From: Dictyostelium discoideum
Taxonomy: Eukaryota
Assembly: GCA_000004695.1 (NCBI GenBank)
Contig: CM000152.2
Coordinates: 5,056,001 to 5,120,000 of the forward strand
Direction of reading: 5' to 3'
DNA length: 64,000 nucleotides
The notes under the pieces were generated by a model. It ran no database searches and was not told the origin of the DNA. It saw only the letters and a program-made list of their open reading frames with translations. Of the stretch, positions 1 to 62,223 are shown piece after piece (position 1 is the stretch's first letter; each line of letters begins with the position of its first letter). A program made the translations under genes and the position numbers.

Positions 1-30
1 TTAAAATTTTAAAAAAAATAACATTAAAAA

Positions 31-229
31 ATGTCAGACGACGAAAAGAAATTCAGATCAAAGTTATACACAAAAACAGGTGATAAAGGAACATCAGCCT
101 TGTATAATGGTGAAAGACGTCCAAAAAATGATACCTTTTTCCATTCTTTAGGTTCAATAGATGAACTTTCAGCTTGTATTGGTGTTGCGTAAGTATATTT
201 TCAACTTATTTTATTTCATAGGGATAGGT

Positions 230-268
<39 letters not shown>

Positions 269-506
269 AATTTAGATTAGAATACTGTTTAATTGATAAA
301 AATGGATTAGAACCATACTTGGAAAGAATAGTTGGTGTTATGCTTGATATTGGTGCTTGTATTGCAACTCCATTGGATAATTCACAAGAAAAACATATTA
401 AGAAAACTAAATTAGATGATAGAAAATATGTTGAAACTTTAGAAAGATGGATTGATACAATTGATTCTCAATTACCACCATTAAAATTCTTTATTATCCC
501 TGTAGG

Positions 507-561
<55 letters not shown>

Positions 562-821
562 AACAAAAATTTAATTAATAATTTTTAAAGTGTAATGTAG
601 GTTTAGCTAGTTCTCATTTACATGTTGCAAGATCAGTTTGTTGAAGAGCAGAGAGAGAAATTGTTGGTTTAATTAAGTTCTCATTGGTTCCTGAAGTAGT
701 CGGAATTTTTATCAACAGATTAAGTGATTTCCTTTTTGCTGCAGCTCGTTTCGCCGCTATGAAGAGTGGTAAAGATGAAGCTTATTGGACAAGTAAAGGT
801 GTTACTTTTGATGATATTTAA
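31..821 (+). CDS. ATP:cob(I)alamin adenosyltransferase (MMAB/PduO-type), 3 exons: join(31..188,276..501,591..821). There is an in-frame TGA at 642-644.
   Basis: Exon 1 translates [53 protein letters not shown], matching the PduO/MMAB N-terminal motif. GTAAGT donor at 189. Exon 2 ([43 protein letters not shown]...[10 protein letters not shown]) ends at a GTAGGT donor at 502. Exon 3 (..[71 protein letters not shown]) matches the conserved CRRAER / NRLSDYLF region. The exon 2/3 junction could alternatively be 505/601. Confidence 0.75.
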
Positions 822-891
822 ATGTACCATTGTTTTTTTGTAAAAGATAAAAAAATAAAATTAAAAATAAAAACTTTATTAATTAATTACA

Positions 892-922
<31 letters not shown>

Positions 923-1043
923 TTTTTTATTTTATTATTACTATTTTTAATTTTTTTATTTTATTATCACTATTTTTAATTTTTTTTTTTGAAATTAAAA
1001 AAGGGTTAAAATATCCTCCCAAAAATAATTTTCACTTTCCAGG

Positions 1044-1074
<31 letters not shown>

Positions 1075-1158
1075 ATAAAATAAATCATTTAGGACCAGTG
1101 TGCATTTAGAAAGGGAAAAAATAAAAAAAAATAATTTTTCATTTTTTTTTCTGGCTAA

Positions 1159-1199
<41 letters not shown>

Positions 1200-1596
1200 T
1201 TTTAATTTTTATTTTTGTTTCTGTTTGACACTTGACACTTCATATATATCCACCTTTTTTATAATTATTCTTATTATTTAAATTAATTGATAATTCATTT
1301 AATTTATAAATAATTTTTATAATAAAGTCTTTTTCCAATTAATATATATACTCTATAAATGAATAGAATCTTTAATAATAATAATATCACCAACTCATTA
1401 TTAGAATTCTCCAACTTTTTATTTCTTAACAAAGAATAACATTTTATGTTTTCTTTTTTTTTTTTAAAAATTTATTTAAAAGAAAACTAAAAAAACTAAA
1501 TAAATAAATAAACTCAAACAAAATTCAAAACAAACAAAATTCAACACAAACAAATATATTCAAAATAAACAAATAAACAAATAAATAGATAAAATA

Positions 1597-2153
1597 ATGA
1601 AAAAGAAAACAGTATTTTTTTCATTAGCAATTTTATTGGTAATACTTTTTAATCAAATTTTAGAAATAAAAAGTGAAGCTACTACTACTACTAGTTTAAC
1701 CATCAGCACCAGTAATGAAGGTAGTAGTAGTACAAGTAATAAATTTATTGTAAAAGGAGAAGAGAATGAATATGAAAATGAGGGGGGTGAATGTAAAGAT
1801 AATATAGGATGTGGTAGAAATGCAAGTAGATTAATATTATCATTCCTTTTTTTAATTTTACTTTCAATGTTAGTAATCTATGTTCTCACTAGAATAAATA
1901 TTCATTATATACCAGAATCATTAGCAGTAGTAGTATATGGTATAATCATTGGTATAATCATCAAATATTCAAATGTTGATACATTTAAACATTTAGCATC
2001 ATATAATCCAAATGAATTCTTTTTATTCATTTTACCATTAATCATATTTGAAACTGGTTTAACTTTAAATAAAGTAAGTCTATTAATAATAATAGTATGA
2101 TAATAATAATAATAAAAATAATAATAATAATAATAACAATGGTAATTAACACC

Positions 2154-2249
<96 letters not shown>

Positions 2250-3840
2250 TTAGAAAGAATTCTTTAGAAATATAAAATCAATTTTAGTATTAGCAACTAT
2301 TGGTACACTTATAGCATTTTTATTAACAGGATTTGGATTATATTTATTAGGTATTTGGGGAGTTTCACCAAAGATAACATTATTTGAAAGTTTATTAGTA
2401 TCTTCGATATCATCAGCTACAGATCCAGTTGCAACATTAGGTATTTTCAAAGTTTTAGATGTAGATCCAACATTATTTTTAATTGTATTAGGTGAGAGTA
2501 TACTAAATGATGCAGTATCAGTTATATTATATGATTCAGTATTACAATATGATAATATTAAAGAACTTTGGAAACCAGTTTTATTGTTTTTCGGTATTTC
2601 AATTGGTAGTGTCATAATTGGTGTATTAATATCAATCATTTTAACATTATTATTAAAATTTACAACAATTAAATTCACAACAACAACAAATACAACAAAT
2701 ACAACAACAACAGATGCAACATCATCAACATTTAGATTATTTGAAATTATATTTATAATAATTATATCATATTCATCATATATAATTGCAGATTCAATTT
2801 ATTTATCAGGAATATTATCATCATTCTTTTGTGGTATAACATCAAGTCATTATTTATATAAATCATTATCAGATGAAACTAAACAATCAATTTCACAATT
2901 ATTTAGAATGATTGCATTTATTGGTGAAACAATTGTTTTCATTTATATTGGTTTAGTTTTACCAAATTTTAATTTTCAATTTAATATTAAATTATTAGTT
3001 TGGACTTTTTTATTATTATTAATTTCAAGAGCAATTTCAATATTTCCAACATTTTTTATAATTAATAAATTAAATAATAAAAATAAATTAAATAATAATA
3101 AAAATAATAATAATGGTGGTGGTGGTGGTAATATGGTATCAATAGGAATTCAAATTGTAATTTGGGTATCAGGATTAAGAGGTGCAATTTCATTTTCATT
3201 AATGGAAGAAAGTGAAATTCAAGAAAATGTTTCATCAATTGAATCAGCAAATTTATTAAAAACTGATATTTTAATGATTGTTTATTCAACATTATTTATT
3301 TTTGGTTCTTTAACTTATCCAATATTAAAGTTATTGAAAATTAAAACTGATGTTTCATCAACAATTAATAAAGATAGTCAAGATAATGATGATAGTAGTG
3401 TTGATGATAGTAGTGGTGGTAGTGATAGTAATAAATTATTAAAAAATTTTAAACAAAGATCTGGTGCTTTATATAGAGTTTTTAAATATTTAATTTATTT
3501 GGATAATTTCTTATTAAATTTCTTTTCAAATAAAAAAGGTCTTTCACCTCGTATGAAATCTTCAATTTCTTCAAGCTTTAAATGTGATAATGATGATAAG
3601 AATATTGGTGGTGATGGTAATAATAGAAACTCAATTCAATTGGAAACATTTAATAATAGACATTTTAGTTTCAATAAAGATGATGAGGATTACTATGATG
3701 ATAATCAAACTCAAAATGAAAGTAATAGTGGAAGAGAATTATTATTTACAATGGACAGTGAAAATGAAACAACTACATCAACAACAACTGCCCATGATAA
3801 TAAAAATAATAAAAATAATAATAATAATGATGATGAATAG
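1597..3840 (+). CDS. Na+/H+ exchanger (CPA1/NHE family), 2 exons: join(1597..2073,2254..3840)
   Basis: Signal/TM start, then LPLIIFETGLTLNK | KEFFRNIKSILVLATIGTL ... LGESILNDAVSVILYDS ... multiple TM helices, the canonical NHE motifs (LPPIIFESGYSL / FGESLLNDAV). GTAAGT donor at 2074, TTTTAG acceptor ending at 2253, and the frame is kept. The C-terminal tail is N/D/S-rich low complexity. Confidence 0.85.
2101..2250. repeat. (AAT/ATT)n microsatellite inside the NHE intron
   Basis: About 40 near-perfect ATT triplets at 2161-2250, preceded by (ATA)n. Confidence 0.9.
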
Positions 3841-4031
3841 GTCAACATTTAAATAACAAAACAAATTAATAAATAATAACAAAAATAATTAAATTGATAA
3901 AATTTTTATTTTTAAAAACTAATTTTTTTATTTTTTTTTTTTTATTTATTATTTACAATTATAAAAGTACATTCTTTTTTTTTTTTTTTTATATTTTTTT
4001 TTTATATATACACTGGATTAAATTAATAATT

Positions 4032-5092: not shown

Positions 5093-5399
5093 GTAAAAAT
5101 ACGAAAATTTCTTTAAATTTTAAGTGATTTTATAATATTTTAAAGTCCGACTGGGTGGAAAAAATTTAGATATTTATAAATTTAGTATTTAATTTTTTCA
5201 TGAATTTAAAGAAAATTTTTTTCATAAACTCGAATTATATGATAGTTCTTATATTTATTTAGTTTCTTCAAAATATGGAATTAAAGGTTGTCATTTAATG
5301 GTAAATATATATTTTTTTATATTTGTTTTAAAAAAAAATTAGATTATTTTATTAAAAATTATTAAAAACAAAAAATAAAATTTTAAAGGATAAATCATT

Positions 5400-6720
<1,321 letters not shown>

Positions 6721-6880
6721 CATTTCCTTTATAAAATGATGAAGATAATGAATAGCTTTTACAACAATAGCAAAATTGTAAATCTTTAATACTTAATTTT
6801 AAAAAATAAAATACAAAGAAAAAAGTATACATAAGTATGACTATAAAAAAAAAAAAATTTATAGATATATAAAATTTTAA

Positions 6881-7279
6881 TTACTCTAAATAATTGTTTA
6901 TAATTGGCTGTTCTGAATTAGACTTAGATTCATATTCATATTCATATTCATATTCAGATTCAGATTCAGAATCAAAATCTGAATTAGATTCTGAATCAAA
7001 TTCTGAATCAGATTTTGAATCAGATTCACTATATTTGATTGTGTCATCTTTAATTAATTCACTTTTTATTAATGAAAGGGTAGATGAAAATATTAAAGAA
7101 CATGATAATGAAGAGTTTGAAGACGATGAAGATGATGAAGATGATGATGATGATTGTGGTGAAGAAGAAGAAAATGGTAAAGAAGTTGTCTTACTATGAC
7201 CTATATTATTAAAAGTACTACAACTATTAAAAATATCTAGACGTGGTCTTTTAATTAAAATAAATAGAAGTACTAGCAT
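6881..7279. other. Low-complexity ORFs on both strands (acidic D/E/S-rich on +, Ser-rich on -). Coding status and strand are ambiguous.
   Basis: + strand 6894..7199 reads ...DSDSESKSELDSESNSESDFESDS...EEFEDDEDDEDDDDDCGEEEENGKEVVLL. - strand 6881..7279 reads Ser-rich ...SESDSKSDSEFDSESNSDFDSESESEYEYEYEYESKSNSEQ. A further open frame on - at 7280-7440 reads SPPKSVFSSGRENVYLPEEYKKKIEKENQENLEILENSMKDASTSIYFN, out of frame with an upstream ATG across an A12 run. Confidence 0.25.
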
Positions 7280-8227
7280 CTTTCATACTATTCTCTAGAA
7301 TCTCTAGATTCTCTTGGTTTTCTTTTTCTATTTTCTTTTTATATTCTTCTGGTAAATAAACATTTTCTCGTCCCGAAGAGAAGACAGATTTAGGTGGTGA
7401 ATTATAATTTGATTTTGAAAAGTAATTTTTTTTTTTTGTAATAAAGACATGATAAAATAATTTGTCTTAAAGGAAAAAAAATAATTATATTAAATTATAA
7501 AATTAATAATTTTATAGATTACAATCTTTGTTTATATAAATAAAAAAAAAAAAAAAAAAGTCTGGAAACTAAAAAAAAAAACCTACATATTTTATTTATT
7601 TGAATAGTGTTATATACTAAAGTGTATTGAAAAAAAACTATTAAAAAAAAAAAAAATCACTTTTATGGACCTTTTTAGGTGTTAGACTAATTTAAAAAAA
7701 AAAAAAAAAAAAAATCACTTTTATTCTGACACCCTTTTTTTAGGTGCTAATTTTCCTAAAAAGGAACGTAAATTTTTTTTTTTTTTTCCTTTTTTTTTAT
7801 CAATCAAATTTCTAAATTGGAAACTATAAGATAAATCTAATAAAAATTTTAAATTTTTTTTATACTATAAATCTCCCCATAAATCATCCATCAACATGCA
7901 AATTATTTAAAAATCCTGCTCAAATTGAAAAAAAAAAAAATAAAAATAAAATAAAATAAAATAAAATAAAATAAAATAAAATGAAATAAATTTACAGATG
8001 TAATAGTTTATAGATTTTTGTTTTTCTTTTTCTTTTTCTTTTTTTTTTTTCATTTTTTTTTTTTTAATTTTGGTAATATAACTTCTCCTCTAATATTTGA
8101 TATACCATCTGTGGTTATTGATATTTTAATAATACACATATTTCAGCCTTTCTATTACAAATATAACCAGCAGGTAAATTATTAAAAATAAATAGTTTTA
8201 TCATCTAAAGTTGTTATTAAATTGGCA

Positions 8228-8285
<58 letters not shown>

Positions 8286-8450
8286 AAGAAAGTGTAATAG
8301 CCAGGATGAAATAAAAAATCTCAAATATTTTCAAAGGAAATAAATACCAAGTTAATATTTTATAAAACACTATTAAATGGGACCAATAGTTATAAGAAGT
8401 TGATTTTTATGTGTGAAAATATTGTGGCAAATAAAAATAAAATGAATTCA

Positions 8451-8500
8451 GCCATAGTAGTATAGTGGGAATATATTTTTCTCGTATAAATTTATTGTGA
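8451..8500 (+). pseudogene. Truncated, diverged copy of the tRNA gene 5' half (A-box region only)
   Basis: gccatagtagtatagtgggaatatatttttctcgtataaatttattg aligns to the 5' part of the intact tRNA at 14744 (gccatagtagtctagtggtaagacatttctctcgtataaaattatacag) with an internal deletion. There is no T-arm or 3' acceptor. Confidence 0.55.
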
Positions 8501-8541
8501 ATAATTAATTACAAAAAAAATGAAAATTTTTACAAATTCGA

Positions 8542-8597
8542 GCCATAGTAGTCTAGTGATAAGACGTTTCTCTCTTATAAAATTATACAGGGAAGAA
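8542..8597 (+). pseudogene. Second truncated copy of the tRNA 5' half, fused to the repeat-module leader
   Basis: gccatagtagtctagtgataagacgtttctctcttataaaattatacagggaagaa is ~90% identical to 14744-14800 and keeps the same upstream context (aaaatgaaaatttttacaaattcgag). After gaagaa it diverges into tgattaattacaaaac instead of the B-box/T-arm. Confidence 0.6.
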
Positions 8598-8625
8598 TGA
8601 TTAATTACAAAACATTTTTTTTGTT

Positions 8626-8869
8626 TTGTTTTTTTTTTTTTTGAAATGGATAACGTCTCCTTGTGATGCAAGATCTCATTTTTTTAATTACAAAACTTTT
8701 TTTTTTTTAATCGTACAACGCAATTATTTTTATTACAAAACTTTTTTTTTTGAATTGGATAACCCAATTAATTTAAATTTTAATTACAAACTTATTTTGG
8801 ATTGGATAACGCAATTATTAGTTATGGTTTTTTATTTTTTTTTTTTGTTGCTCCTTGACTTTAATTACA

Positions 8870-8904
<35 letters not shown>

Positions 8905-9186
8905 AATTGGATAACGCAATTATTAGTTGCTTCTCCTTGAGATGCTAGATCTCATTTTATTTGTAGTTTTTTACAGGGTCTCTAAAAGAGGGGTTAGTTT
9001 ACTTTTTTTTTTTTTTTTTTTTTTTTTATTTTAATTACAAAACTTTTTTTTTGAATTGGATAACGCAATTATTATTTGCTTCTCCTTGAGATGCTAGATC
9101 TCATTTTATTTTATTTTTTTTTTTTTTTTTTACAGGGTCTCTAAAAGAGGGGTTAGTTTACTTTTTTTTTTTTTTTTTTTTTTTGT
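8626..9186. repeat. Tandem array (3-4 copies) of a ~150-bp module, probably retroelement terminal (C-module-like) sequence
   Basis: Imperfect direct repeats, each ending in poly(T): (t)n-gaattggataacgcaattatta..ttgcttctccttgagatgctagatctcatttt..acagggtctctaaaagaggggttagtttac-(t)n. Copies lie near 8640, 8745, 8900 and 9050, and the two copies near 8900-9000 and 9050-9155 are nearly identical. The array sits between the truncated tRNA copies and a TRE 5' fragment. Confidence 0.6.
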
Positions 9187-9477
9187 TTCGAATTTTGAAT
9201 TGTATTATTACTTTTGATTAAAACATCTTTTTTGTCCAAACTTTTTTCTAAATCTTTTTTTATTTTATCGTCTGGTTCGTGATTGATGTTTATGACGTAT
9301 TTGAATTGTTTTTTTTTTAATTGAGTTTTATCCACAATTTCGCTTATTTTTTGTAGGCATTTGTGTTGCTTAATATTTGTGGTGTTGTTTGTGATTTTCA
9401 TTTTATTTTCTTTCTATTTTTTATATTTTTCTTTAAAAAGTTAAAAATCTGGAAATTTTCTGATTAACTTGGGTTCC

Positions 9478-9480
<3 letters not shown>
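9187..9480 (-). mobile_element. 5'-terminal fragment (5' UTR plus first ~70 codons of ORF1) of a second TRE-type retrotransposon copy
   Basis: Minus-strand sequence cctgggaacccaagttaatcagaaaatttccagatttttaac...atgaaaatcacaaacaacaccac is near-identical to the 5' end of the full copy at 14384-14100. ORF 9153..9401(-) begins MKITNNTTNIKQHKCLQKISEIVDKTQLKKKQFKYVININHEPDDKIKKDLEKSLDKKDVLIKSNNT, the same as ORF1 of the full copy, and then breaks off into poly(A) plus repeat-module sequence. Confidence 0.75.
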
Positions 9481-9536
<56 letters not shown>

Positions 9537-12500
9537 TTATTTATAGAAAGTACTGAGTGAATTATTGTATTTTTTGAGATGTTTAGGAAGTTCTATTGCG
9601 TGAAGAGGTGAGTTCCATTGTCTGCTAAATTGTAATAGCTTTAGCGAGATTAGTGAGTCTAATTTATTTTGTTCTTCTGGCCGTTGCTTTGATTTGATTC
9701 TTAATGTTTTGTTTATAACCGCTTGTGTCCTGTCCCATGCAGCTCTTTGTGTTTTAATTAGTTCACGTATGACTTGTTGTCTGTGAATTATTATTTCTTT
9801 TTCATCGTGAATGAGTTTATTTCTTTTGTGCCAGATTTTATCGAATATAATAGCTATTAAATTGGCTACTAGTGCAATTTGTAGATGGTTTAAAATCTTC
9901 ACATTCCAGGTGTGAGTGGTGTGTCCACACTTAGTTAGGGTGTAGTTGAAGATTTCTTGTGTGTTTTTGATGTGGGCTTTGCAGTTGAAGAATATATGTT
10001 CTGAGGTCTCATCTTCCCCACACTGTTGGCATGGCATGTTGTATATTTTTGGTAGTGCTTTCAGTGTGTATCTCCATAATAGATCTCTACCTTTCATGTT
10101 TATTATTTTTTTGATTTCTTTAAATGGAAGGTGTTTGCTATTAATTTTGGTCATTATTTCTTTTTGGCCAGGAGTTGGTATGAATTTGTTGTGTTCAGGA
10201 GATTGAGTTGTCATCATATCTTCGTATATTTTTTTTAATTTTGGGAGGTGTTCGTAGTGTGTTTGTTTATTTTGTGGAGTTTTTAATTGGGTCCATGCTT
10301 GCTTGCATTGCCAGTGTAGTTGTAGTTGATTTTGTTTTGTTGTTGTTTTGTTGTTGTTGTTGTTTTTGAGTTCCTCTTCCCACAGTTTTATATATGAACT
10401 AGGAGTGTTACTTACTCTTTGGTGGAGGTATCTTTCGAATAACCATGCTTTCTGTGCTAGTTCTCTTGTCTTCAGGTTCCATAAGTTTAGGCCACCATTG
10501 ATATAGTTGTTTTGTCTTCTTTGTAGTGAAAGAGAGTTTTTAGATTTTGTGTTGAAAACGAATTTTACGATGTTATTTTCAATACTATTGTGTTGTGGTG
10601 TGGTGTTGATGTAAGTGTGGAACGTTAACTGAGATAGTGCATATGTTTTTGCCATTATGAGTCTGCCCATATAGGTTGATGAAGTTGAGTTCCATGTTAC
10701 TAGTTTAGCTCTGATGTTGTCTGAGATTGTATTGATTTTGGATTTGATACCCTTATTGTTGAAGTCAAAGCCGAGGTACCTTTCGTTTGATTTTATGACG
10801 GTGTATAGCGTTCTGGTGTTCCATTTGAAAGTGATACACGAGCATTTGGTTTGGTTTATTTTTGCGCTGGTTGCTTGGCAAAACTTCTTGATCCATTCAT
10901 TCATGAGGAAATGGTCCATAAAGTTGTATGCTATTGTTGCTGTATCATCGGCGAACTGTAGTATTTTAATGGTTTCTTTGGTTACACCATTGATGCAGCG
11001 GTCATTTATTATAGTAGTTGCCATGCATTCAACCACTAATGCGAAGATAGTGGGAGAGATAGGATCACCTTGTTTGGTTCCTCTTTTTGATGTAAAGCTT
11101 TTAGATAATGAGTTATTGATGTACACTGATGTTTCTGATTCATTGAGTAAGTTCATTATTGTGAGGACCATTTTGAGTGGTAGTTTTAGATGTGCAAGAG
11201 TACGTAGAATGGCGTTATGTGAGATTGAATCGAATGCTTTTTCAAAATCATAAAATGTTATGATTGGTTCCATATCCTCTTTTGTGTTAATCTCTCGTTT
11301 TATTATTTCTATTGTTGAGTTTAAGGTGATGATGTTATCGTGCAGTAGTCTTCTTGGTACGAATCCAGTTTGGAATGGTGAGATTATTTTGTTTAAGAAC
11401 TTCAGGATCCTATTGTTGATTATTTTCGAATAGATTTTGTAATCGACATTTAGAAGTGTTATTGGTCTATAATTATCCAGGTTGTTTGGGTCTCCTTTGT
11501 TTTTATATATAGTAATCAATATCCCTTGTTTGAAGTCCTTTGGGATTGTTGTGTTCCAGAAGTGATTGTATAGTTTTGATATTATTGGTAGAATTTCATT
11601 AATGTGGTTTTTGTAAAATGTTGGAAGGAGTCCATCTTTACCAGGTGCTTTTCCTTCTTGTATTTTTTCAATGCCTAGTCTGATTTCATATCCTTCTATT
11701 GGTTGATTAATTTCGTCCAATATCTTTTGATCAATCCTTTTATTGAATGTTTTTAGGAGTTCGTGGTGAGTGTCTTCGTTGCATTCTCTCTTCTGGTACA
11801 GGTTCTCGTAATATCTTCTTGCTACTTCGAGGATATCCTCGTGTTTTGTTACCAAACAATTGTTGCTTGGATCTAGAATTTGAGGGATTTCATTTGTCTT
11901 TCTTTGGACTTTTAACCTTCTGGTTAAGTATTTTGATGGTGTTTCTTTGTTGTTGATGTGGGTGTTGGTTTGGTTTGCTTGTTTTATTCTTACTTGTTCC
12001 TTTAGAATATTGTTGATCTCTTCTTTAAGGAAGATTGCTCTTGAATCTTTGGCTGTTTCGAGTTTTTCTGCGAGTTCTTTTAGTTTGTTTTTGGTTTTAT
12101 TGCTTTCTCTAATTTCTATATTAATTGACAGTTTCTTTATTTCATCTTTTAGTTTCAACCATTGTTCGCAAATGTTTAATTTGTACCATTTGCTGGTGTT
12201 CTCTTCGAATTTTTTATTGTAGTATTTAATTGTTTTATTAATTTTGAGGCTGGTTGAATTCATTTTGAGAGTTTCTAGGTTTTGTCTCCATAGTCTTTCT
12301 CCTTTCTTTTGTTGCTCGTATTCTGGTATTTTTAATTCAATGATTACCATGTTGTGATCAGATTTTAATTTGATTTCCTTAGTAGTAACTATTGGGTTTA
12401 GATGGAGTATCTTCTTTGAGACAAAGACCCTATCGATGGTTGATTTGTTTCTTGGAAATGTGATTCCATTCTTAATTTCTGTAAATTCGAATTCGTCGAA

Positions 12501-12758
12501 GATTGTTTTAATATATTTGTTAAGGTTATTATCCACTGAACAGTCTACATTGAAGTCTCCGGTTATAATATCGCTGTGTAGTATTTCTTCTGTGAGATTT
12601 TCCTTATACCATTCATGTCTTTCGTTTGACTTTGCTGGGGCATAAATGGTTGTGCATTTGATCTGTGTTTTTGCAATCATCCATTCGGAAGATATAATTC
12701 TTTCGTTTATTGTTTTTGTTGTTGTTTTTATTTGGGTGTTGATGATGATTTGTGACAC
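9537..12758 (-). CDS. Retrotransposon ORF2: apurinic-type endonuclease plus reverse transcriptase polyprotein (1073 aa from the first Met)
   Basis: EEP/APE motifs (ITGDFNVD...SDHNMVIIEL), RT motifs (LLNVDYKIYSKII; FYDFEKAFDSISH; KILQFADDTATIA), and a C-terminal CQQCGEDETSEHIFFNCKAH..HKRNKLIHDE zinc-knuckle-like region. Confidence 0.9.
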   Translation of the reverse strand: MSQIIINTQIKTTTKTINERIISSEWMIAKTQIKCTTIYAPAKSNERHEWYKENLTEEILHSDIITGDFNVDCSVDNNLNKYIKTIFDEFEFTEIKNGITFPRNKSTIDRVFVSKKILHLNPIVTTKEIKLKSDHNMVIIELKIPEYEQQKKGERLWRQNLETLKMNSTSLKINKTIKYYNKKFEENTSKWYKLNICEQWLKLKDEIKKLSINIEIRESNKTKNKLKELAEKLETAKDSRAIFLKEEINNILKEQVRIKQANQTNTHINNKETPSKYLTRRLKVQRKTNEIPQILDPSNNCLVTKHEDILEVARRYYENLYQKRECNEDTHHELLKTFNKRIDQKILDEINQPIEGYEIRLGIEKIQEGKAPGKDGLLPTFYKNHINEILPIISKLYNHFWNTTIPKDFKQGILITIYKNKGDPNNLDNYRPITLLNVDYKIYSKIINNRILKFLNKIISPFQTGFVPRRLLHDNIITLNSTIEIIKREINTKEDMEPIITFYDFEKAFDSISHNAILRTLAHLKLPLKMVLTIMNLLNESETSVYINNSLSKSFTSKRGTKQGDPISPTIFALVVECMATTIINDRCINGVTKETIKILQFADDTATIAYNFMDHFLMNEWIKKFCQATSAKINQTKCSCITFKWNTRTLYTVIKSNERYLGFDFNNKGIKSKINTISDNIRAKLVTWNSTSSTYMGRLIMAKTYALSQLTFHTYINTTPQHNSIENNIVKFVFNTKSKNSLSLQRRQNNYINGGLNLWNLKTRELAQKAWLFERYLHQRVSNTPSSYIKLWEEELKNNNNNKTTTKQNQLQLHWQCKQAWTQLKTPQNKQTHYEHLPKLKKIYEDMMTTQSPEHNKFIPTPGQKEIMTKINSKHLPFKEIKKIINMKGRDLLWRYTLKALPKIYNMPCQQCGEDETSEHIFFNCKAHIKNTQEIFNYTLTKCGHTTHTWNVKILNHLQIALVANLIAIIFDKIWHKRNKLIHDEKEIIIHRQQVIRELIKTQRAAWDRTQAVINKTLRIKSKQRPEEQNKLDSLISLKLLQFSRQWNSPLHAIELPKHLKKYNNSLSTFYK

Positions 12759-12970
12759 CCCTTGTCCTGTTTTATCAATTGGTGCGTGGTGTGTTATTTT
12801 GTTTTTATATTGTTGATTTATTGAGTAAATTTTATTTGTTTTTATATTTGTTTCAGTTAGAAGTGCTGCGTCCAGCTTGTTGTTGTCTAATACGGTGTTT
12901 ATTATGCTGGCAGATTGGATGGTGTTGGATCCTTGGACGTTCCAAACACCTATTCTTATTGTGTTTTTCT

Positions 12971-14305
12971 TTATAGTTTTATTTGGGGTAGATTTTTATC
13001 TACCTTTTGAAGTTTCTGGTTTATTTTGTCTTCTAACTGATCTTTACTTTGTTCGTTGTGTTGTTGGTCTTGTGTGTTTGTGGGGTTTTTTGATTTACTG
13101 ATTTGTTTTAGAATTTCCTTGTTGAAGTTGTCTATATCTTCATCCATTTTTGTTTTTATGCTTTTTTGTCCATATTCACCCAATTTTGGTTTGACTGGTG
13201 TTTTGTTGGTCCTGTTTGTTTTGTCTTGTTGTTTGTTTTTTGGTGTGTTTAACAATTTACTTGGTGAATCGATAATTTTCGATGGTGTACCATAGGTTGG
13301 GCTGAAACTCATGATATGTTTTATTGGAGAGGAGAAGAACCATTGATTTGAAGGGATTGAAAGTGGGAATTCTATTTTTCTTATTGCATCAGTGTTTGGG
13401 CTGGTGAAGTCGAAGATATCATTTACCTCTCTAAGTTTTTCTTCCGTTGTTAGTCTCTTTGTTTCGCCGTGTTGTTTTATTGGTGTATTGTATGGAGATG
13501 GTGGTTCAATAGGTTTTTCTGATTTTGTTTTAATTTCTTGATTTTTTATCGATTGGGTATTGATCTCATTCTCTATTCTTGTTAGTTCATCTACGTTTTC
13601 TAGTGATGCATCTATTACCTTTTGAGCTGTATCATCTAGGGCCATAAATGTTTTATCATTAGATGAGGAGGTGATTGGTGGGATAATGATTGTTCTTTTT
13701 CCTTGTTTTGGTATTTGTTCTGATGTAGATTTTGGTTGTTGTTCATCTGATTGTTTTTTATTTTTGTTTTCTTCTTGATTTTCTGGTAATGAGGTTTGAT
13801 CTCTCCATCCTTTGTTGGAGTGACCAATTAATGTTAGATTGTCTAGTTCAATGATAGTGTCATATTCTTCTACGACTCTTTTCACTGTTTTGATAATTAG
13901 AGTTTCGCCTTTAATTTCAGATTTAATTAGTTTACATCCTTCATTTTCTATTACCCATTCTATTTCTGTGAGTGATTTATACCAATCGAAATCCGTATAC
14001 ATATTTTTTGGTCTTAGAGTGGTTATAAATTGTCCTTTTAATTCTGCATCGAACATATTTACAAAATAGATTACTGTACTAATACTGTCTGTGAGAATTT
14101 TGAATGTATTATTACTTTTGATTAAAACATCTTTTTTGTCCAAACTTTTTTCTAAATCTTTTTTTATTTTATCGTCTGGTTCGTGATTGATGTTTATGAC
14201 GTATTTGAATTGTTTTTTTTTTAATTGAGTTTTATCCACAATTTCGCTTATTTTTTGTAGGCATTTGTGTTGCTTAATATTTGTGGTGTTGTTTGTGATT
14301 TTCAT
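12971..14305 (-). CDS. Retrotransposon ORF1 (444 aa, basic/K-rich, probably a nucleic-acid-binding protein)
   Basis: Intact ORF directly upstream of ORF2 on the same strand. Its N-terminus is duplicated in the neighbouring partial copy, which is typical LINE ORF1 placement. Confidence 0.8.
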   Translation of the reverse strand: MKITNNTTNIKQHKCLQKISEIVDKTQLKKKQFKYVININHEPDDKIKKDLEKSLDKKDVLIKSNNTFKILTDSISTVIYFVNMFDAELKGQFITTLRPKNMYTDFDWYKSLTEIEWVIENEGCKLIKSEIKGETLIIKTVKRVVEEYDTIIELDNLTLIGHSNKGWRDQTSLPENQEENKNKKQSDEQQPKSTSEQIPKQGKRTIIIPPITSSSNDKTFMALDDTAQKVIDASLENVDELTRIENEINTQSIKNQEIKTKSEKPIEPPSPYNTPIKQHGETKRLTTEEKLREVNDIFDFTSPNTDAIRKIEFPLSIPSNQWFFSSPIKHIMSFSPTYGTPSKIIDSPSKLLNTPKNKQQDKTNRTNKTPVKPKLGEYGQKSIKTKMDEDIDNFNKEILKQISKSKNPTNTQDQQHNEQSKDQLEDKINQKLQKVDKNLPQIKL

Positions 14306-14383
14306 TTTATTTTCTTTCTATTTTTTATATTTTTCTTTAAAAAGTTAAAAATCTGGAAATTTTCTGATTAACTTGGTTCCCAT

Positions 14384-14426
<43 letters not shown>

Positions 14427-14427
<1 letters not shown>

Positions 14428-14697
14428 TCTTTTTTATATGAAAAATGAAATAATCAAAAAAAGAGATTGTTGTTGTTGTTTGTTTTTTTTCGATCTGATT
14501 ATTTTTTGCTTTTTTTTGAAAATTTTGCTACGCAAAATTCTCAAAACGAAACAAATAATAAATTACAATAAAGTAAAAAGATGGCTTTTTAAGATAGTTT
14601 ATTTATTTATTTATTTGTTTTTTAAGTCTTTTTTATATGAAAAATGAAATAATCAAAAAAAGAGATTGTTGTTGTTGTTTGTTTTTTTTCGATCTCT
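14427..14697. repeat. Local tandem duplication: a ~75-bp segment repeated 196 bp apart
   Basis: aagtcttttttatatgaaaaatgaaataatcaaaaaaagagattgttgttgttgtttgttttttttcgatct occurs at 14427-14500 and again at 14623-14697, between the retrotransposon 5' end and the tRNA gene. Confidence 0.8.
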
Positions 14698-14743
14698 TAA
14701 ATTACAAAACAAGCATAAAAAATGAAAATTTTTACAAATTAGA

Positions 14744-14829
14744 GCCATAGTAGTCTAGTGGTAAGACATTTCTCTCGTATAAAATTATACAGCGAAGAAG
14801 GATCCCGTGTTCGATTCACGGCTTTGGCA
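14744..14829 (+). tRNA. tRNA gene, probably carrying a 15-nt intron. Anticodon loop CUCGUA gives anticodon CGU (tRNA-Thr?), so the isotype is tentative.
   Basis: Acceptor GCCATAG pairs with CTTTGGC (one T.T mismatch at 5:68). D-arm is GTCT-AGTGGTA-AGAC (A-box TAGTCTAGTGG). T-arm is CCGTG-TTCGATT-CACGG (B-box GTTCGATTC). Discriminator A at 14829 is followed by T6 (a pol III terminator). Anticodon stem TTTCT/AGAAG closes only if 14780-14794 (taaaattatacagcg) is removed as a 37/38 intron. Confidence 0.7.
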
Positions 14830-14879
14830 ACTTTTTTCCAAAAAAAGTTAAATTTATTATTTTTTTTTTTTTTTATAAT

Positions 14880-15300
14880 TTGAAAAAACCAGTCAATACT
14901 ACTGGTTTGCTACTCACTGCCCATTAGCTTCAATATGGAGATAATGGATTCACCAGAATTTGTATTCCTTGGAAACAAGAAGCATGAGAAAAAGAGCACA
15001 TCTAAATTACAGAAATTTAAAAAACCACTCAATTACCATAACGCTACTCACTGCTAATTGAATGGTTTTTTTAATTTCTGTAATTTTGATGTATTCTTTG
15101 TCTCTTTATTATATCTGCATTTCTTTTCCTATGGCCATAGCACATTTGCTGCAGACGAATTCGTTTCTTTTCATAAACAAGCCCAAGTCTCTTTAAATTT
15201 ACCCAATTTTACACTTTTGTCAAGAAAATCCCTATGTTCTAGATGTGGTTCTTTGTATTTCTAGCCTTCTGTTAAAAGTCCACAAAAAACAATGATAGAT
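14880..15300. other. Non-coding, relatively GC-rich block downstream of the tRNA with internal imperfect direct repeats. Possibly a truncated TRE3-type element end or an ncRNA locus.
   Basis: aaaaaaccagtcaatactactggtttgctactcactgcccattagc (14882-14930) resembles aaaaaaccactcaattaccataacgctactcactgctaattg (15018-15060). There is no long ORF, and the composition is unlike the flanking AT-rich spacer. Confidence 0.3.
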
Positions 15301-27935: not shown

Positions 27936-30073
27936 TTATTTTATTATTATAAAATAATTTTTAGGTTGCAATTAAATTTATAAAAAATAATAAATTATCA
28001 GGAAAACAAAAAGAAACATGTTTTAGAGAAATTGATATTATGAAATTATTAGATCATCCAAATATAGTGAAATTATTAGATGTTGTTGATAAAAGAGAAG
28101 AAGAAGGTACAACTTATTTAATAGTTGAATATGTATCAGGTGGTGAATTATTTGATTATATAGTTGCACGTGAATATATTAAAGAGAAAGAAGCAAGAAA
28201 ATTTTTTAGACAAATGATATCGGCCATAGAGTATTGTCATGCAAATTTAATAGTTCATAGGGATTTAAAACCCGAGAATTTATTATTAGACTCAAATGGT
28301 GATATTAAAATCTCGGATTTCGGATTGAGTAATAATATTCAACCTGGTAAGCTATTGGAGTCATTTTGTGGCTCACCATTGTATGCAGCACCAGAGATAT
28401 TGAAAGCAGAGAAATATTTAGGACCACCCGTTGACATTTGGAGCTTAGGCGTTATCATGTACGCCGTGCTCTGTGGCAACTTGCCATGGGAGGGCGACTC
28501 GCAGGCAGAGATCTCGTTCAATTCAGTGCATGGTAATTACGAAGATCCCACCCATTTATCGGCAGAGGCAGTTCACATTCTACGAAGAATGATTGTACCA
28601 AATCCAAAAGATAGAGCAACGATTCAAGAACTTAAAAATCATCCATGGACCAATATTGATTATCAAGAGATTCCAAAATCTCATTTACCACCAAGAGATG
28701 CGGTTCATGAGATTAAGGAAGACATTTTCGCTCATTTAATTTCACTTGGTTTTCCAAATACAAAAGAAACTCGTGATATAATATTAAAGAATGAAAATTG
28801 TGGTATTGTAAATGTTTATCATTTACTATTGGATAGATATGCTTCTAAAGAAGTTGAAAATTTAAAATCAAAATTAGAATTACTCTCAAAAAGAAAGAAA
28901 TCTTTCTCTGATAAAAGAAATCCTTCAACAAATTCTTTAGCTTCAATTCCAGAAGATTCAAATGATTTATCTTCTAATAATAATAATAATCAACAACAAC
29001 AAAATTCACCACCTTCTAAAACTAATTCCTCTTCCACTTCTTCATCAAATAGAGAATCAAATAATAATTCTCCTTCTCAAGGTTCAATAAAAGAAATTAG
29101 TTTAGATGAGTTGGATAATCATATAGAACAATTGGATAATGATATTGAAAATTCTGATAATAATAAATCATCTTCACTTACAAGAAGATCTTCTGATCCA
29201 AATAAAGATATTGAAAATTCTTTAAAAGCTCAAGGTTTATTTTCAAGTTATTCTGCACCTGGTGTACCAAATTCTGATCATAATTATGATTTTGAAACTT
29301 ATCAACAACAACAACAATATCAACAACAACTACACCAACAACAACTACAACTACAACAACAATATCAATCACAAATACAATCCGATATATCATTCCCACA
29401 TGATGATGTTGAAATTGAAAGTTATTCAATTCAACAGCAACAACTACAACAACAACAACAACAACAACAAGAACAACACAAAGAAGATAATAATAAACCA
29501 AATACAAATTTAAGAAGAAATTCAATTGCAGTTTCAACATTTATGGAAGATGAACCAAATGAAATGCCAATTAATAATTTGTATAAAATGAATGAACAAA
29601 TTCAACAACAACCAATTATTGGTGGTAGTGGTAATGTAATGAGATCACAATTTAATCAAACATTACCAACAATTGATCAACAACCAGTTATTGAAGCACC
29701 AAAAACGAGAAGAATGAGTTTAGATTCACGTATGTTAAATGGTGATCAACAATCATTGGTTGAAAAGAATCAACATATGGCAAGTCCAAGAACTTCGAAA
29801 GGTATATTTAAATCTTCAACTACCACTACTAAATCACCAGAGAAAACAATTATCGAATTGAAAAGATCTCTCGAAGAAAGTGGTTTATTCACTAAAAAGA
29901 AAGGTCCTTACCTTTTCTTATGTTTTGATGAAGATAACTCTGTTAAATTTCAAATCGAAATCGTTAAAATTTGTAACCTTGATTTAACTGGTATTCAATT
30001 AAAAAGATTAAGTGGCGATACTTGGAAATATAAAGATATTTGTACTGAATTAGTTGAATCAATGAAATTATAA
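27659..30073 (+). CDS. MARK/Par-1-type AMPK-related Ser/Thr kinase with UBA-like and C-terminal KA1 domains, 2 exons: join(27659..27871,27965..30073)
   Basis: Exon 1 carries the glycine loop (LGNGTFGKVKLGTNICTKEN). Exon 2 starts VAIKFI (the conserved Lys) and continues [35 protein letters not shown] and DIWSLGVIMY. The UBA-like stretch is IKEDIFAHLISLGFPNTKETRDIILKNENCGIVNVYHLLLDR, the spacer is Q/N/S-rich, and the KA1 tail reads KGPYLFLCFDEDNSVKFQIEIVKICNLDLTGIQLKRLSGDTWKYKDICTELVESMKL*. GTAAAT donor at 27872, TTTTTAG acceptor at 27964. Probably one of the mrk genes. Confidence 0.88.
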
Positions 30074-41421: not shown

Positions 41422-42987
<1,566 letters not shown>

Positions 42988-43223: not shown

Positions 43224-43358
43224 ATGACTTCGACAACTTTAAAGAGGAAGAAAGGGCAAGAAAATGAAATAAATGAAAATATTAATAATAATGAAAATGA
43301 ATATATTAATAACAATAGCGATAATGATAATGATAATGATAACCTCAATAAAGATTTA

Positions 43359-43416
<58 letters not shown>

Positions 43417-44183
43417 GTAATGAAAATGATAGTAATTATTTCAATAATTTATCAACTAAAACTCAACCTTCTTCAATGATTATTGATAATGAAATTAGTT
43501 CATCACCTCCACAACCTTCTCAACCAATTCTAAAAAGACCACCAACAAGAGAAAGAAAGCAAATACATAAACTATTTTCATTATCCGATGATGATGATGA
43601 TGATAATGATGATGATAATGATGATGATAATGATGATGATAATGATAACGATGATAATAAAGATGAAAAAAAAAAAGAAAAAAAGGAAAAAAAAGAAAAA
43701 AAAGAGAAAAAACCAAAACAAGAGAAAAAACCAAAACAAGAGAAAAAACCAAAACAAGAGAAAAAACCAAAACAAGAAAAAAAGTCAAAACAAATTCAAG
43801 AAGTTCAAGAAATTCAACAACAGCAACAACCACAACAACAACTTGAAAAAGAAGAAAACAAATTGGAAGAAAAAGAAAAAGAAAAAGAAAAAGAAAAAGA
43901 AAAAGAAAAAGAAAAAGAAAAAGAAGAAGAAGGAGAGGAAGAAGATAATAGTAAAAAAAAAAAGAAAAAACAGAAAATTGAACCTGACCAACCAATTAAG
44001 AACTCAATCCCTAAAAAACCACCAACAACTAGTAGTAGAAAATCAAAGAATAAACCGCCAAATAATAATAATAATAATTGTAATATTTTATTAAATTTTT
44101 TAAATCCTACATCAACCACTGCCGCCACCACCACCAACACCACCACCATAGATACAACCAATACAACCAATACAACCAATACA

Positions 44184-44220
<37 letters not shown>

Positions 44221-46620
44221 GTAATAATAGTACACCAAATATAATAGAATCAATGTCATCACCAACATCAGAAGATGATTCAAAACCAATTCACCCATTC
44301 TTTGGAGAACAACAAAAGAAGAAAGAAAGAAAACAGAGAATAGAATCAGTGAAATCAATTAATGATGATCCAATACTATTGGAGAAAACTAAAAATGCAC
44401 CATTACCAGAAATGTTTTTATCTAAAAAAGAAAAAGATGAAATCTATACAGCTGCTCAACAAGAGAGATTTAGATTAGATATTATGAAATCAAATGAAGA
44501 TCATGAAAAAATTTTAGCTGGTAAACCAGTTCATCCTTTCTTTTTTTCACCACCCCCACCTCAATCCTCTTCAACAAATTCAAATTCCTCCTCCTCCTCA
44601 TCTTCTTCAGACACAATACCAACAACATCATCGTCATCATCATCAATAATTATAGATTTAGAAGAAAAGAAATACCAAATTAAAAGATTACTTGAGTTTC
44701 CAGTTGAAGAATCACATATAGGTTGGTATGATATTAACCAAGATGAAAGTATTAAATTATCTTTACCACCTTCAAATAAACAACTTTTAGATAAATTTAA
44801 AAGATCAAATTTAAAAACTTCAACTATTGATTGTAATAGTTTAATCATTCATAATCCAAATCAATTAATACCAAATTTCGATAAAATGTTAACAACAATT
44901 GAACAACAATTTCCTTTCCTATCTTCACAACATAGTTCAATATCTTCTATTAATGACTCACCTTTAAAATCATTATCACAACAATCTTCTGAAATTATTA
45001 TAATTGATAATGATAAAAACAACAACAACGACAACAACGGCAATAACGACAATAATAACAATAACAACGATGAAATTGAAATTAATGAAGATAAATTATT
45101 TGAAAATATATTAAATTATTATAATAGTATAAAGAATGATGATAATGATAATGATAATGATGATGATCAAGATGATGAATTTAATAATGATTCAAATTTT
45201 ATAAGAATAGATAATTTTAAAGATATTAGAGATATTAAATATATTTATAATGAATTTTTAAATAGTTTAAGTAATAGTGGTAGTTTTGGTATTAATAATG
45301 TTCAAGGGAATTTATTATCAAATAGATACTATTCTACAATTGAAAATTTAAATTTATTTAATGAATTAAATCATGAAGTAATAACATTTTTCAATCAATG
45401 GGTTGTAGGTTGGAAAGACAAATTAGAAAAGAAAGCCAACAAATGCAGTACTAGTGGTAAAATTAAAAAATCTTCAAAAAAGACTGAACTTGATGAAATT
45501 TTAAAATCTTCAATACTTATTGTTGGTCCATTTGGTTGTGGTAAGAGTTCATTGGTCAATATAAAATCAAAACAAAATAATTTCACAATCTTAGAAACTA
45601 ATCCATCTTGTAAACGAAGTGGTAAAGCTATCACTGAACTATTAGGTGAAGCAACTCAATCAAAAGCTTTAAACATTTTAAAGAAATCAAATAATGAAAA
45701 TAATCAAAATAATAATAATAATAATGATGATGATACTTCTCAAAACTCATCGCCACAACAACAACAACAACAAACAATAACTTCTATAACTTCAAAAAAA
45801 AGAGGTAGAAAATCAATTTCATCTTTAAATAATAATAATAATAATAATAATAATTGTGAAATTGGTGAAATTAATAAAAATTTAATTCTAATTGAAGAGA
45901 TTGATATTCTATATGAAGAGGATAAAGGTTTCAATAATTCAATTTGTACATTATTAAATAATACCAAAGTACCAATAATTATGATTTGTAATGAATTAAA
46001 TCCATCAATTAGTAATTTAATTCAAGAAAGTGGTATCATTTCATTGTATATGTCAAAACCTACAACTCAATCATTATCATTGTATTGTTGTTTCATTCTC
46101 TTGAAAGAGAAAAAGTACAAACTTCTTTCATCTCAAAATACTTTAAACTCTTTAAATATTCATTCTTTTATCATTAATAATCAAATTGATATTAGAAAAT
46201 CTTTAAATAATTTAGAATTTATAGTTAATCATAAAAATCAACATCATCAAACTATTTACAATTTAACATTCTATATGTTTAATGATTTATTTAAAAAATA
46301 TAATTTTAATTTTTTTAATATTTTATTTAAACTACCAATTAAAAATAAAGATAATCTTGATAACGATAATCATGAAATTATAGTTGAAAAAGAAATAGGT
46401 AAGTTTTTTAATTTAATTGTTATTACTAAAATATAAAAAATACTAATAATATTTATAAAAAAATAATAATAATAATTAGAAAATAGTGAAGAAATAGATG
46501 AATTTGAATTATTTAATGATAAATTCAATTTTGTTAATACTTCATTAGTTGAATTTGATATCAATTTATATTTTAATAATTATTTGGAATATATTAATAA
46601 TAATCAACACAACAACAACA

Positions 46621-56757: not shown

Positions 56758-59700
56758 TTAATTTTTAAAACCACCAACTAAGATTGCTTTACATTGTTTT
56801 GCTCTTTCTAAGAAAAGAGAAGATTCATTTGGAAAACCTCTTTCAATTAAAAAGTTTGCATAAGCGGTTAAACAACGATAATTATTTGAATCAGCTTCAA
56901 GAGAACGAAGGAAATAATCTTCAGCTTTTTCATAACGTTCACAACGAACTAAAAAGTTTGCATAAAAGAAGAGAATGAGGGGACCTTTAGTATCGGCATC
57001 GATAGCACGTAAGAAATAACGATCAGTATTTACCACGACACGATCAGACATTGAAAATCTAACATTGGACATATTTTTACCTTGACTTGCACTAAATTCC
57101 AAAATTTTACACCAAGCTTGAGCACATAGTTGTAAGGTTTCCTTATTGTTTGGATTTGAAATTAATGCCAATTCAAAGAATTTTCTAGCTTTATGTAATA
57201 AATGAATGGCGGTACCAATTGAACGTTCAGTCATTGCTTTAGCATAAAAGAAGGTACCTTCAGCATTTGTAACCAAATCAGTATGTTTAACACGTACACC
57301 AATCTTTTTCAAATCACTAGTATCGAATGGTTGATAATGATTCCAAAGATTTGATTGAGTATCGGCCACTTTTTCAATGGTTTTCTTTCTAAATTTCAAA
57401 TGAGTCATATCTCTGAATCTAGTGAACAATAAATGACGACCAATCACTGGATCATAATTGTTACCCTCTAGTTTCTCATAGAGAATTTCTTGAAGTTTCC
57501 AACCATTTGTACTTGCTTGTTGTTGAGCTTGTTGTTGAGCTTGTTGTTGTTGTTGAGTTTGAGTTGATTGAATAGTTGGTGATGCTGGAGCCAATGGATA
57601 TTGAGTTGATTTTCTAATACCACCATCTTTTGACGATGGTGTTGTCGGATATCCACTACCACTATTATTTAAATTACCATTTCCATTGGTTGTTAAATCT
57701 AAAACATTATCACTACTTGTATTTGTACCTAAACTACCACTACTACCATTCTGTTGTTGTTGTTGTTTATGCATCGTTAAAACCGTTGGAATATTAATAA
57801 TATAGAATTTTGAAGCCAATTCATTCTTTACTGTTACATTCCAAAATTCATTAGTATCGAAATCTGTCAATGTTGAAATACCAAAAACCATATTTAAGAA
57901 TTTAGTTGTCAAATCAATATAAGGTGCTGATAAGGGTTGATTATAACGTTTCATTGCACTTCTTAATCTTCTACGTAAATCATTTTTAAGTACTCTTGCA
58001 ATGGCTTCGATGAGTAGTACAAAGCAAGCATCTCTATCATCCATAATCACCAACATATGACCTATCCAACGCATATTAATACCTTGTCTATGGAATTGTT
58101 CTGGAATATGAACATCACCAGTCAACAAAGTACCATTGTTTAGTGATTCTTTAATCATCCACTTTAGACGAACTGATAGACGTGGAATTAACTCTGTTAA
58201 CAATCTATTGGAAGCTTCTTTTACCTCTTGATTATGAATCAATCTATCTTTATCATTCTTTATAAAACCACTGAATGCATCGGAGCATAATGGTTTTGGA
58301 TGATTCTTTAGGAACTCTGGTCTAAACAATTGGAATAAATGACCACCTGGTACATTTTCATCTGGATAAGTTGGTGGAAAGGTACGAGAGAAATCTATTA
58401 AATAAAATCTACCATCGGTACCGATATGACCTTCGATATCTGTGGCGGAATAAAGTAGAGTGGGTGGAACTGATGTACCACCTAAATGAGGTTTCAAATT
58501 TAACATTTGTGATAATGAATGCATAATTGGTAATGCTTTTTCATTTGCATGAACTGTTTTACCCATATCACTTGAACCATAGACGATAGTTGATTTTTCA
58601 CCACTTGAAATGATTGGTAAGTAGCTCATTGCAATCAAACGGAAACCCATAAAATCTACTAAAGCCATCAAAGGTACACAAAGACCACCGATTGGACAAT
58701 TTAAAGTTGCCATACAACCTTTTAATTCTTGACCACCAACTTTTGCTCCACCCCATTCATCATAAACATTTGAACTTCCAGAGAATTTAAAGAGTACATT
58801 TCTTACAATATATTTATCACCACCTAAATGACCACCAATTGAACGACTTTGAATGGTTTTCTCTTTTAAATAACGTTCTTCAATGATAATTCTACCATAG
58901 GTTTTGACAGTATGTATAAAATCTTGAGAAATATGTAATAAATCTGTACAAATCTCTTGTAAGCGATAAAGATTTGTATCCAATGATGGAAATTCTCTAA
59001 ATCTAAGTACAACTTTTTGAAATCTTTCATTCAAATCTGATTCATCATCTAATTTAGATTCATCATCATCATCTTCTTGTTTATTTTTTCTTTGATTTGT
59101 TGGTGATGATGAATTTGGTGTTAAATTTCTATTGCTATTGCTATTGCTATTATTGGATTGTTTATTTTGTTGAATTTCATATGGATCAATATTATCTGGT
59201 TGTTGTAATAGTTTATCACTACTGTTTGATTTTATATCATCTCTTAATGGTTGAGAAGTTTGTTTATTATTACTACTATTTACACTTGTTATAAAATTAC
59301 TTTCAGCTCTATTTAAAACCCTATCACCACGAGACGGTGATTGAATTGAGAAAGTGGATGTTGATCTATGAATTGTTTGCTGTCTAGATTCTTCATTCTC
59401 TGAATCGTACTCTGATAAATCATCTCTATCATAACCAGAAATAATCGATTCAGTATCATATGGATTTTGATTATTTTGATTTGGTGAATTTGGATTATCT
59501 ACAGCTGAAAATATTGCCATTGAATTTGATGATAATGACATTCCAGTCTTTGCTACACTATTAATATTTAAAAATCCATGTTGTTCACCAACTACACTTG
59601 TATTCATATTAGCTCTATTTAATGTAAAATTATTAACAATTGCTATTGGTTTAGTAGTTCCATTATTATTATTATTATTATTGTTATTATTATTAATATT

Positions 59701-59842
59701 ATTATTAATATTATTATTATTGTTATTATTATTATTTTCATTCATATTATTTAAAAATGCATTTAATTGAGAATTTAATGTTGATGCTGTCACTGTTCGA
59801 GTTAATGTTGGTGGTGGTTCAACAATTGTTACATTGTTATCA

Positions 59843-59907
<65 letters not shown>

Positions 59908-61448: not shown

Positions 61449-61529
<81 letters not shown>

Positions 61530-61538
61530 TAATGCTAC

Positions 61539-61605
<67 letters not shown>

Positions 61606-61672
61606 GTTGTTATTATTAATGCTATTAGTGTTATTATTATTATTATTACTATTATTATTATTGTTATTGTTA

Positions 61673-61748
<76 letters not shown>

Positions 61749-62171
61749 TATTATTATTATTTATATTGTTACCGCTATTATTACTATTTATACCGCTCGT
61801 ACTATTTTCGTTTATATTAATATTATTATTATTAATAATATTATTATTATTCGTATTATTCGTATTATTATTATTATTTATATTTATATTATTGTTAACA
61901 TTATTATTATTAATGCTATTAGAATTATTAGAATTATTATTTACACTCGAATTACTTGAAGTTAATAGATTACTGCCGCTACTAGTTGATGATACACTAT
62001 TAACACTACTAGCTAAACCACTATTACTATTTACACTCAAGCTATTGCTATCTTGTTCTCTTAAGCCATTACTGCTTAATAGTTGATCCCTATTCGAACC
62101 ACCACTTATACTTCCACTAAATATATAATGATTACTAGAATTTAATGGTTGTAAAGATGGTGATGATGAAC

Positions 62172-62223
<52 letters not shown>

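Follow-up and report, generated by a model that had tools for sequence, protein, structure and literature searches.

What is an in-frame stop codon doing in the middle of an otherwise intact gene? The DNA analysed here (the window) is a stretch of 64,000 nucleotides of chromosome 3 of Dictyostelium discoideum AX4, taken from the 2005 Sanger reference and very AT-rich (about 20% GC). Its first 821 bases contain a plus-strand gene of three exons, DDB_G0281875, for an ATP:cob(I)alamin adenosyltransferase of the MMAB/PduO type, and the third exon carries a TGA at a position where homologs have arginine. The stop might be an error of the reference, a nonsense mutation of the strain, a codon that is recoded, or part of an intron, as the public gene model has it. 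D. discoideum encodes methionine synthase, methylmalonyl-CoA mutase and an adenosylcobalamin-dependent class II ribonucleotide reductase (PMC2667541, PMC3605638), and since it keeps enzymes depending on adenosylcobalamin, an intact adenosyltransferase is expected. No mention of DDB_G0281875 was found in the literature searched. Our analysis suggests that the TGA is not a new biological feature but most probably an artefact of the reference, worsened by an annotation that hides the stop.

The gene could be reconstructed completely. Exon 1 (31..188) opens with the ATG at 31 and includes the motif YTKTGDKG; it is defined by its translation and its PF01923 match, and is identical to the corresponding part of the public AX4 protein XP_640473 and of P0121, a protein present in the annotations of three further D. 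discoideum assemblies. It is followed by intron 1 (189..275; 87 nt, GTAAGT...TAG, 13% GC), exon 2 (276..501, placed by translation), intron 2 (502..590; 89 nt, GTAGGT...AAG, 6% GC) and exon 3 (591..821), which includes NRLSDFLF...DDI and ends at its natural TAA stop (819-821). The exons have a GC content of 27-35%, and their conceptual product is 204 codons long with one in-frame TGA. An earlier note, made from the window alone, had proposed three exons, which held, and an exon 2/3 junction at 505|601, which did not: the orthologs have two more residues there, and GTAGGT is a better donor than GTTTTT. The boundary lies instead at 501|591, with the donor at 502 and the acceptor ending at 590. 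It gives the protein sequence FIIP|CNVGLASS and agrees with all dictyostelid orthologs and with the gene model of strain AX2-214.

The assignment to the MMAB/PduO family, also proposed in that note, is well founded, with a match to PF01923 (Cob_adeno_trans) that covers profile positions 1-171 of 171 and reaches 157.4 bits against a curated cut-off of 24 (E = 4.8e-46). The best matches, which are dictyostelid MMAB proteins with 64-97% identity, support orthology to MMAB of dictyostelids and human, and so does conserved synteny, with a prefoldin gene upstream and a Na/H exchanger gene downstream in the AX2, CR116C/OT3A and D. citrinum loci alike. All residues of the motifs KTGDKG, R-x-x-C-R-R-A-E-R and NRLSD are present except for the first R of CRRAER, which is the stop in the window; the same gene in AX2-214 has them all. 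Among the matches of the homology searches there was only one AX4 MMAB homolog, and judging from these matches the gene appears to be single copy in AX4. Apart from the TGA we found no defect in the gene, and the splice sites are intact.

Direct reading of positions 636-650 (GTT TGT TGA AGA GCA, translated as V C * R A) confirms that the TGA is present at 642-644 as codon 146, in frame with the sole reading frame that yields the C-terminal half of the Cob_adeno_trans domain. In a MAFFT alignment of the 125 homologs from the first homology search, 124 have R in the column at the stop; the other sequence has a gap there and is the AX4 gene model that skips the codon. The earlier view that the stop replaces a conserved arginine, the first R of CRRAER, is thereby upheld by every homolog aligned at this column (124/124). 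The neighbouring columns are nearly invariant as well, with R at -4, C at -1 and R/A/E/R at +1 to +4. When human MMAB (PDB 2idx; residues 11-194, E = 1.5e-46) is aligned with HMMER, the stop likewise falls on the first R of VCRRAER. We take this residue to be Arg190 of the human protein, a site of patient mutations. The structure PDB 7rut has a C at the position aligned with the stop and presumably represents the Arg190 patient variant.

The codon was then compared across genomes. DNA alignment to the window yielded five loci, three from D. discoideum and two from D. citrinum, and position 642 is A in all five, giving AGA (Arg), and T in the AX4 reference only (CAAGATCAGTTTGT[T/A]GAAGAGCAGAGAG; 29-mers covering the position: CAAGATCAGTTTGTTGAAGAGCAGAGAGA, CAAGATCAGTTTGTAGAAGAGCAGAGAGA). 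The TGA is unique to the AX4 reference among these six genomes. CGA or AGA had been named beforehand as the expected codon, and an independent assembly and the dictyostelid orthologs as the places to look for it: AX2-214 and four more distant strains have AGA, and the other strains and species translate the codon as exon with Arg at this column. With AGA in five independent assemblies, the ranking given in the earlier note, a sequencing error before a strain-specific nonsense allele and that before recoding, is supported.

Within the gene, the closest relative differs from the window at this base alone. P0121 is the window's protein with R in place of the stop: 203 of 204 positions are equal, and * versus R at residue 146 is the lone difference. 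At the nucleotide level, locus L004 (GCA_054883475.1, on a chromosome record of 6.43 Mb) matches the gene at 790 of 791 positions, T642 versus A being the sole mismatch, and even the two intronic homopolymer runs of about 40-50 nt have the same lengths. The AX2-214 gene spans 791 nt for 204 amino acids, implying the same exon structure. The expectation that the rest of the gene would be intact thus proved correct, since the window is identical to the AX2-214 copy at every other gene position and its splice sites are undamaged.

The identity of this near-identical strain matters for what follows. According to Holland et al. 2025 (PMC12745789), the three assemblies deposited as D. discoideum are AX2-214, CR116C and OT3A, and AX2 and AX4 share about 99.5% nucleotide identity at the tgrBC locus. 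GCA_054883475.1 must be AX2-214, by elimination rather than from record metadata, because its loci L004, L007 and L010 are 99.5-99.8% identical to the window, whereas identity is about 90-95% in the two remaining assemblies of the species. A reading of GCA_054883475.1 as a wild isolate, based on 8 substitutions in 10 kb, was dropped, since the differences are concentrated in a transposon cluster and one intergenic stretch and the strains of the project are named by Holland et al. (PMC12745789).

The comparison of the AX4 reference with AX2-214 covered 24.3 kb of the window. Positions 1-3900 contain one substitution, T642 itself, and the 9.6 kb of unique sequence from 14.7 to 24.3 kb contain none. 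Both strains derive from the wild isolate NC4, and with AGA in AX2-214 the ancestral laboratory genotype is therefore AGA. The intergenic DNA 3´ of the exchanger gene contains three substitutions and one 1-bp indel, at 4013, 4061, 4877 and 4994. Of these, 4013 and 4061 can be polarised, and at both it is again the AX4 reference that carries the odd base compared to AX2, CR116C and OT3A; around this cluster at 4.0-5.0 kb the reference may be of low quality. The other differences lie within the transposon cluster or are changes in homopolymer length. Nearly all indels between the AX4 reference and AX2-214 in window 800-23300 are poly(A)/poly(T) length changes of 1-14 nt (for example at 891, 1161, 8231, 9522, 16588 and 18654), and these are either assembly noise or real slippage.

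Taken on base rates, T642 is probably a single-base error in the 2005 AX4 reference or a base that is absent from AX4 stocks generally. Saxer et al. 2012 (PMC3466296) listed 1,916 candidate substitutions relative to the AX4 reference, each found in more than one AX4-derived line, which they ascribe either to errors in the reference or to their ancestor clone differing from it; the count pools true reference errors with such between-clone differences. The mutation rate obtained in that study is 2.9e-11 per site per generation. Reference discrepancies should accordingly occur about once per 10-20 kb of callable sequence, and real mutations between laboratory lineages should be rarer by a factor of ten or more. 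Because discrepancies of the reference are common and the mutation rate is as low as about 3e-11, we infer an error, and not a mutation of AX4, as the source of the T. The true codon at 642-644 would then be AGA for Arg146, and the gene product an ordinary, intact MMAB/PduO-type ATP:cob(I)alamin adenosyltransferase of 204 amino acids, which would supply adenosylcobalamin to methylmalonyl-CoA mutase and to the class II ribonucleotide reductase. Automatic gene prediction would have dodged a false stop by inventing an intron of 42 nt, resulting in a protein of 190 amino acids without CRRAER.

A search for peptides of either allele derived from AX4 reads yielded nothing. Exact look-ups in the protein collections found neither the truncated product of 145 amino acids nor the internal-start versions of either allele. 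A 33-aa antisense ORF that overlaps base 642 was likewise not found in these collections by exact look-up in either of its allelic forms. The homology search with the C-terminal 99 amino acids returned distant homologs only, with at most 64% identity, and no D. discoideum fragment.

The strongest competitor of a reference error is that the T is real. It would then be a nonsense allele at Arg146 that arose by an A-to-T transversion in the AX3/AX4 lineage after the split from AX2, which we regard as unlikely. The T is, after all, present in the deposited reference, the remainder of the gene is as undamaged as a very recent event would leave it, and the ancestral state seen in AX2-214 is compatible with a later mutation on the AX3/AX4 branch. 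The zero substitutions between the window and AX2 in the 9.6 kb of unique sequence argue against it, however, as does the mutation rate of about 3e-11 per site per generation, at which true substitutions between AX2 and AX4 are far rarer than discrepancies of the reference. AX3 was isolated after treatment with nitrosoguanidine, which causes mainly G:C to A:T transitions, and this mutagenesis explains an A:T to T:A transversion poorly. With respect to a unitary pseudogene, the reference sequence shows one lesion only and has no other difference from the intact AX2 copy of the gene.

If the T were nevertheless real, the AX4 protein would end after 145 amino acids, without CRRAER and NRLSDFLF, leaving the mutase and the class II ribonucleotide reductase without cofactor; such a truncation is improbable. 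Laboratory strains would tolerate it, since the class I ribonucleotide reductase is the principal reductase and propionate catabolism is dispensable in laboratory media. That AX4 is a natural MMAB null, producing no adenosylcobalamin and with a silent mutase and a silent class II enzyme, is likewise doubtful. The class II ribonucleotide reductase of AX4 has been reported to look non-functional even when adenosylcobalamin was supplied (PMC3605638). This result, which has other explanations as well, fits an MMAB null if the imported cofactor needs to be re-adenosylated, as may be supposed by analogy with the mammalian pathway. A null AX4 would then help to explain the apparent inactivity of the enzyme despite the cofactor supplied (PMC3605638), and AX4 and AX2 would form a ready isogenic pair for the study of B12 metabolism in an amoeba.

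Could the TGA be decoded instead of terminating translation? Either selenocysteine would be inserted with the help of a SECIS element, or read-through would insert Arg, Cys or Trp, both resulting in a full-length enzyme. Dictyostelium has selenocysteine machinery, near-cognate decoding of UGA can insert arginine, and the open frame 3´ of the TGA is perfectly preserved. The preserved frame is, however, trivially explained by a very recent origin of the stop or by the T being an error. A cmscan of window 1-1600 with all Rfam families (E <= 10) revealed no SECIS or other recoding element, the only two matches being chance-level and unrelated, so that the SECIS in the 3´ UTR and the Cys or Sec in orthologs that mark selenoprotein genes are both missing here; none of the aligned homologs has Sec, Cys or a stop at the column (R in 124/124). 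UGA-C is a context prone to read-through and UGA-A is not, and the base following the TGA is A. Programmed read-through goes with a conserved stop and a conserved context, whereas this TGA is not conserved: all five other Dictyostelium loci, the closest relatives and the near-identical strain included, encode AGA. As far as sequence can decide, the AGA codon of AX2 effectively refutes recoding, and we consider it very improbable. Whether the T is an error or real, nothing here speaks for new biology of this kind.

The public AX4 model avoids the stop in another way. The protein XP_640473 (UniProt Q54TB6; P0002), with 190 amino acids, lacks 14 residues including CRRAER and is otherwise equal to the window translation; deleting positions 636-677 on the plus strand from the coding sequence yields it exactly. 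These 42 nt start with GT, end with AG and are divisible by three, but they have an exon-like GC content of 33%, versus 13% and 6% in the real introns, which are twice as long, and they encode the most conserved motif of the family with four nearly invariant residues. Every other strain and species translates this DNA as exon, and the model of no other strain uses this intron. In composition, length, coding content and splicing in orthologs, 636-677 does not behave as a genuine spliceosomal intron, and by these features it is a spurious one, used to avoid the stop. That the annotated model is nonetheless right, with a real intron removed and a functional isoform of 190 amino acids skipping the stop, is scarcely credible for all its matching splice dinucleotides and its exact agreement with the deposited protein.

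Several further features of the window were noted alongside the gene. An (ATT)n microsatellite of about 100 nt at 2150-2255 takes up what appears to be an intron of the Na/H exchanger gene (PF00999, AX2 annotation), and in other strains (ATT)n-like repeat sequence also lies upstream of MMAB. A non-LTR retrotransposon, which we take to be TRE5-A from its appearance, occupies 9500-14700, with ORFs at 9537-12758 and 12971-14305 on the minus strand; ORF1 encodes 444 amino acids and the reverse-transcriptase ORF2 about 1,050. Between its end and a tRNA-Thr(CGT) gene at 14744-14829 lie about 50 bp. Identical copies of its ORF1 are present in at least 10 places in the AX2-214 assembly. AX2-214 is about 2.6 kb longer in the region corresponding to window ~9044-10022 (L010 15247-17829) and has a second copy of the retrotransposon ORF1 there, which reflects either a repeat that the reference has collapsed or a true difference in structure between the laboratory strains. 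The surrounding 10 kb or so (window 5196-15033), containing the retrotransposon and several short predicted genes, are present in AX4 and AX2 and did not align to the orthologous CR116C/OT3A regions (L006, L008). Going by these alignments, this looks like the insertion of a transposon cluster specific to the AX4/AX2 lineage. Exact look-ups of the window ORFs 28040-30073, 43224-46436, 41422-42987 and 56758-62883 gave no match, probably owing to introns in the real genes.

The main value of resolving the stop in favour of a reference error lies in curation. XP_640473 / Q54TB6, with its 190 amino acids, is without CRRAER, whereas the corrected DDB_G0281875 model, with exons at 31-188, 276-501 and 591-821 (window coordinates), has a product of 204 amino acids with Arg146. 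Comparisons of B12 use among eukaryotes and structure predictions that start from Q54TB6 inherit the defect. A loss of adenosylcobalamin-dependent metabolism would follow only if living AX4 cells really carry the T. In that case the most-used Dictyostelium reference strain would be without adenosylcobalamin synthesis and AX2 would have it, which would matter for work on class II ribonucleotide reductase, propionate metabolism and B12 nutrition.

The locus can be set beside three known systems. Eukaryotic selenoprotein genes also have an in-frame UGA in an otherwise intact gene of an organism with selenocysteine machinery; here, in contrast, there is no SECIS, no homologous Sec or Cys, and the UGA is not conserved within the species. 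Human MMAB (PDB 2idx, 6d5k) resembles the dictyostelid gene in the full-length domain, KTGDKG, the (R)RAER of CRRAER and NRLSD(F/Y)LF, and has Arg as the first R of CRRAER where the aligned codon of the AX4 reference is TGA. In the dictyostelid MMAB proteins (window 31-60 and orthologs P0001-P0010), an acidic N-terminus such as MSDDEKK, MSDSEEE or MSEEQET directly abuts the catalytic domain. They are thus without an N-terminal extension before the domain, unlike human MMAB, in which a presequence precedes it. Methylmalonyl-CoA mutase is presumably mitochondrial and the class II reductase presumably cytosolic. The nearest system is the AX2-214 ortholog (P0121; one of KAM9950361.1, KAM9958256.1 and KAM9959430.1), which lies at the same locus between the same flanking genes, has two annotated introns and a product of 204 amino acids, and is identical in 203 of 204 codons, with AGA (Arg) at codon 146 where the AX4 reference has TGA.
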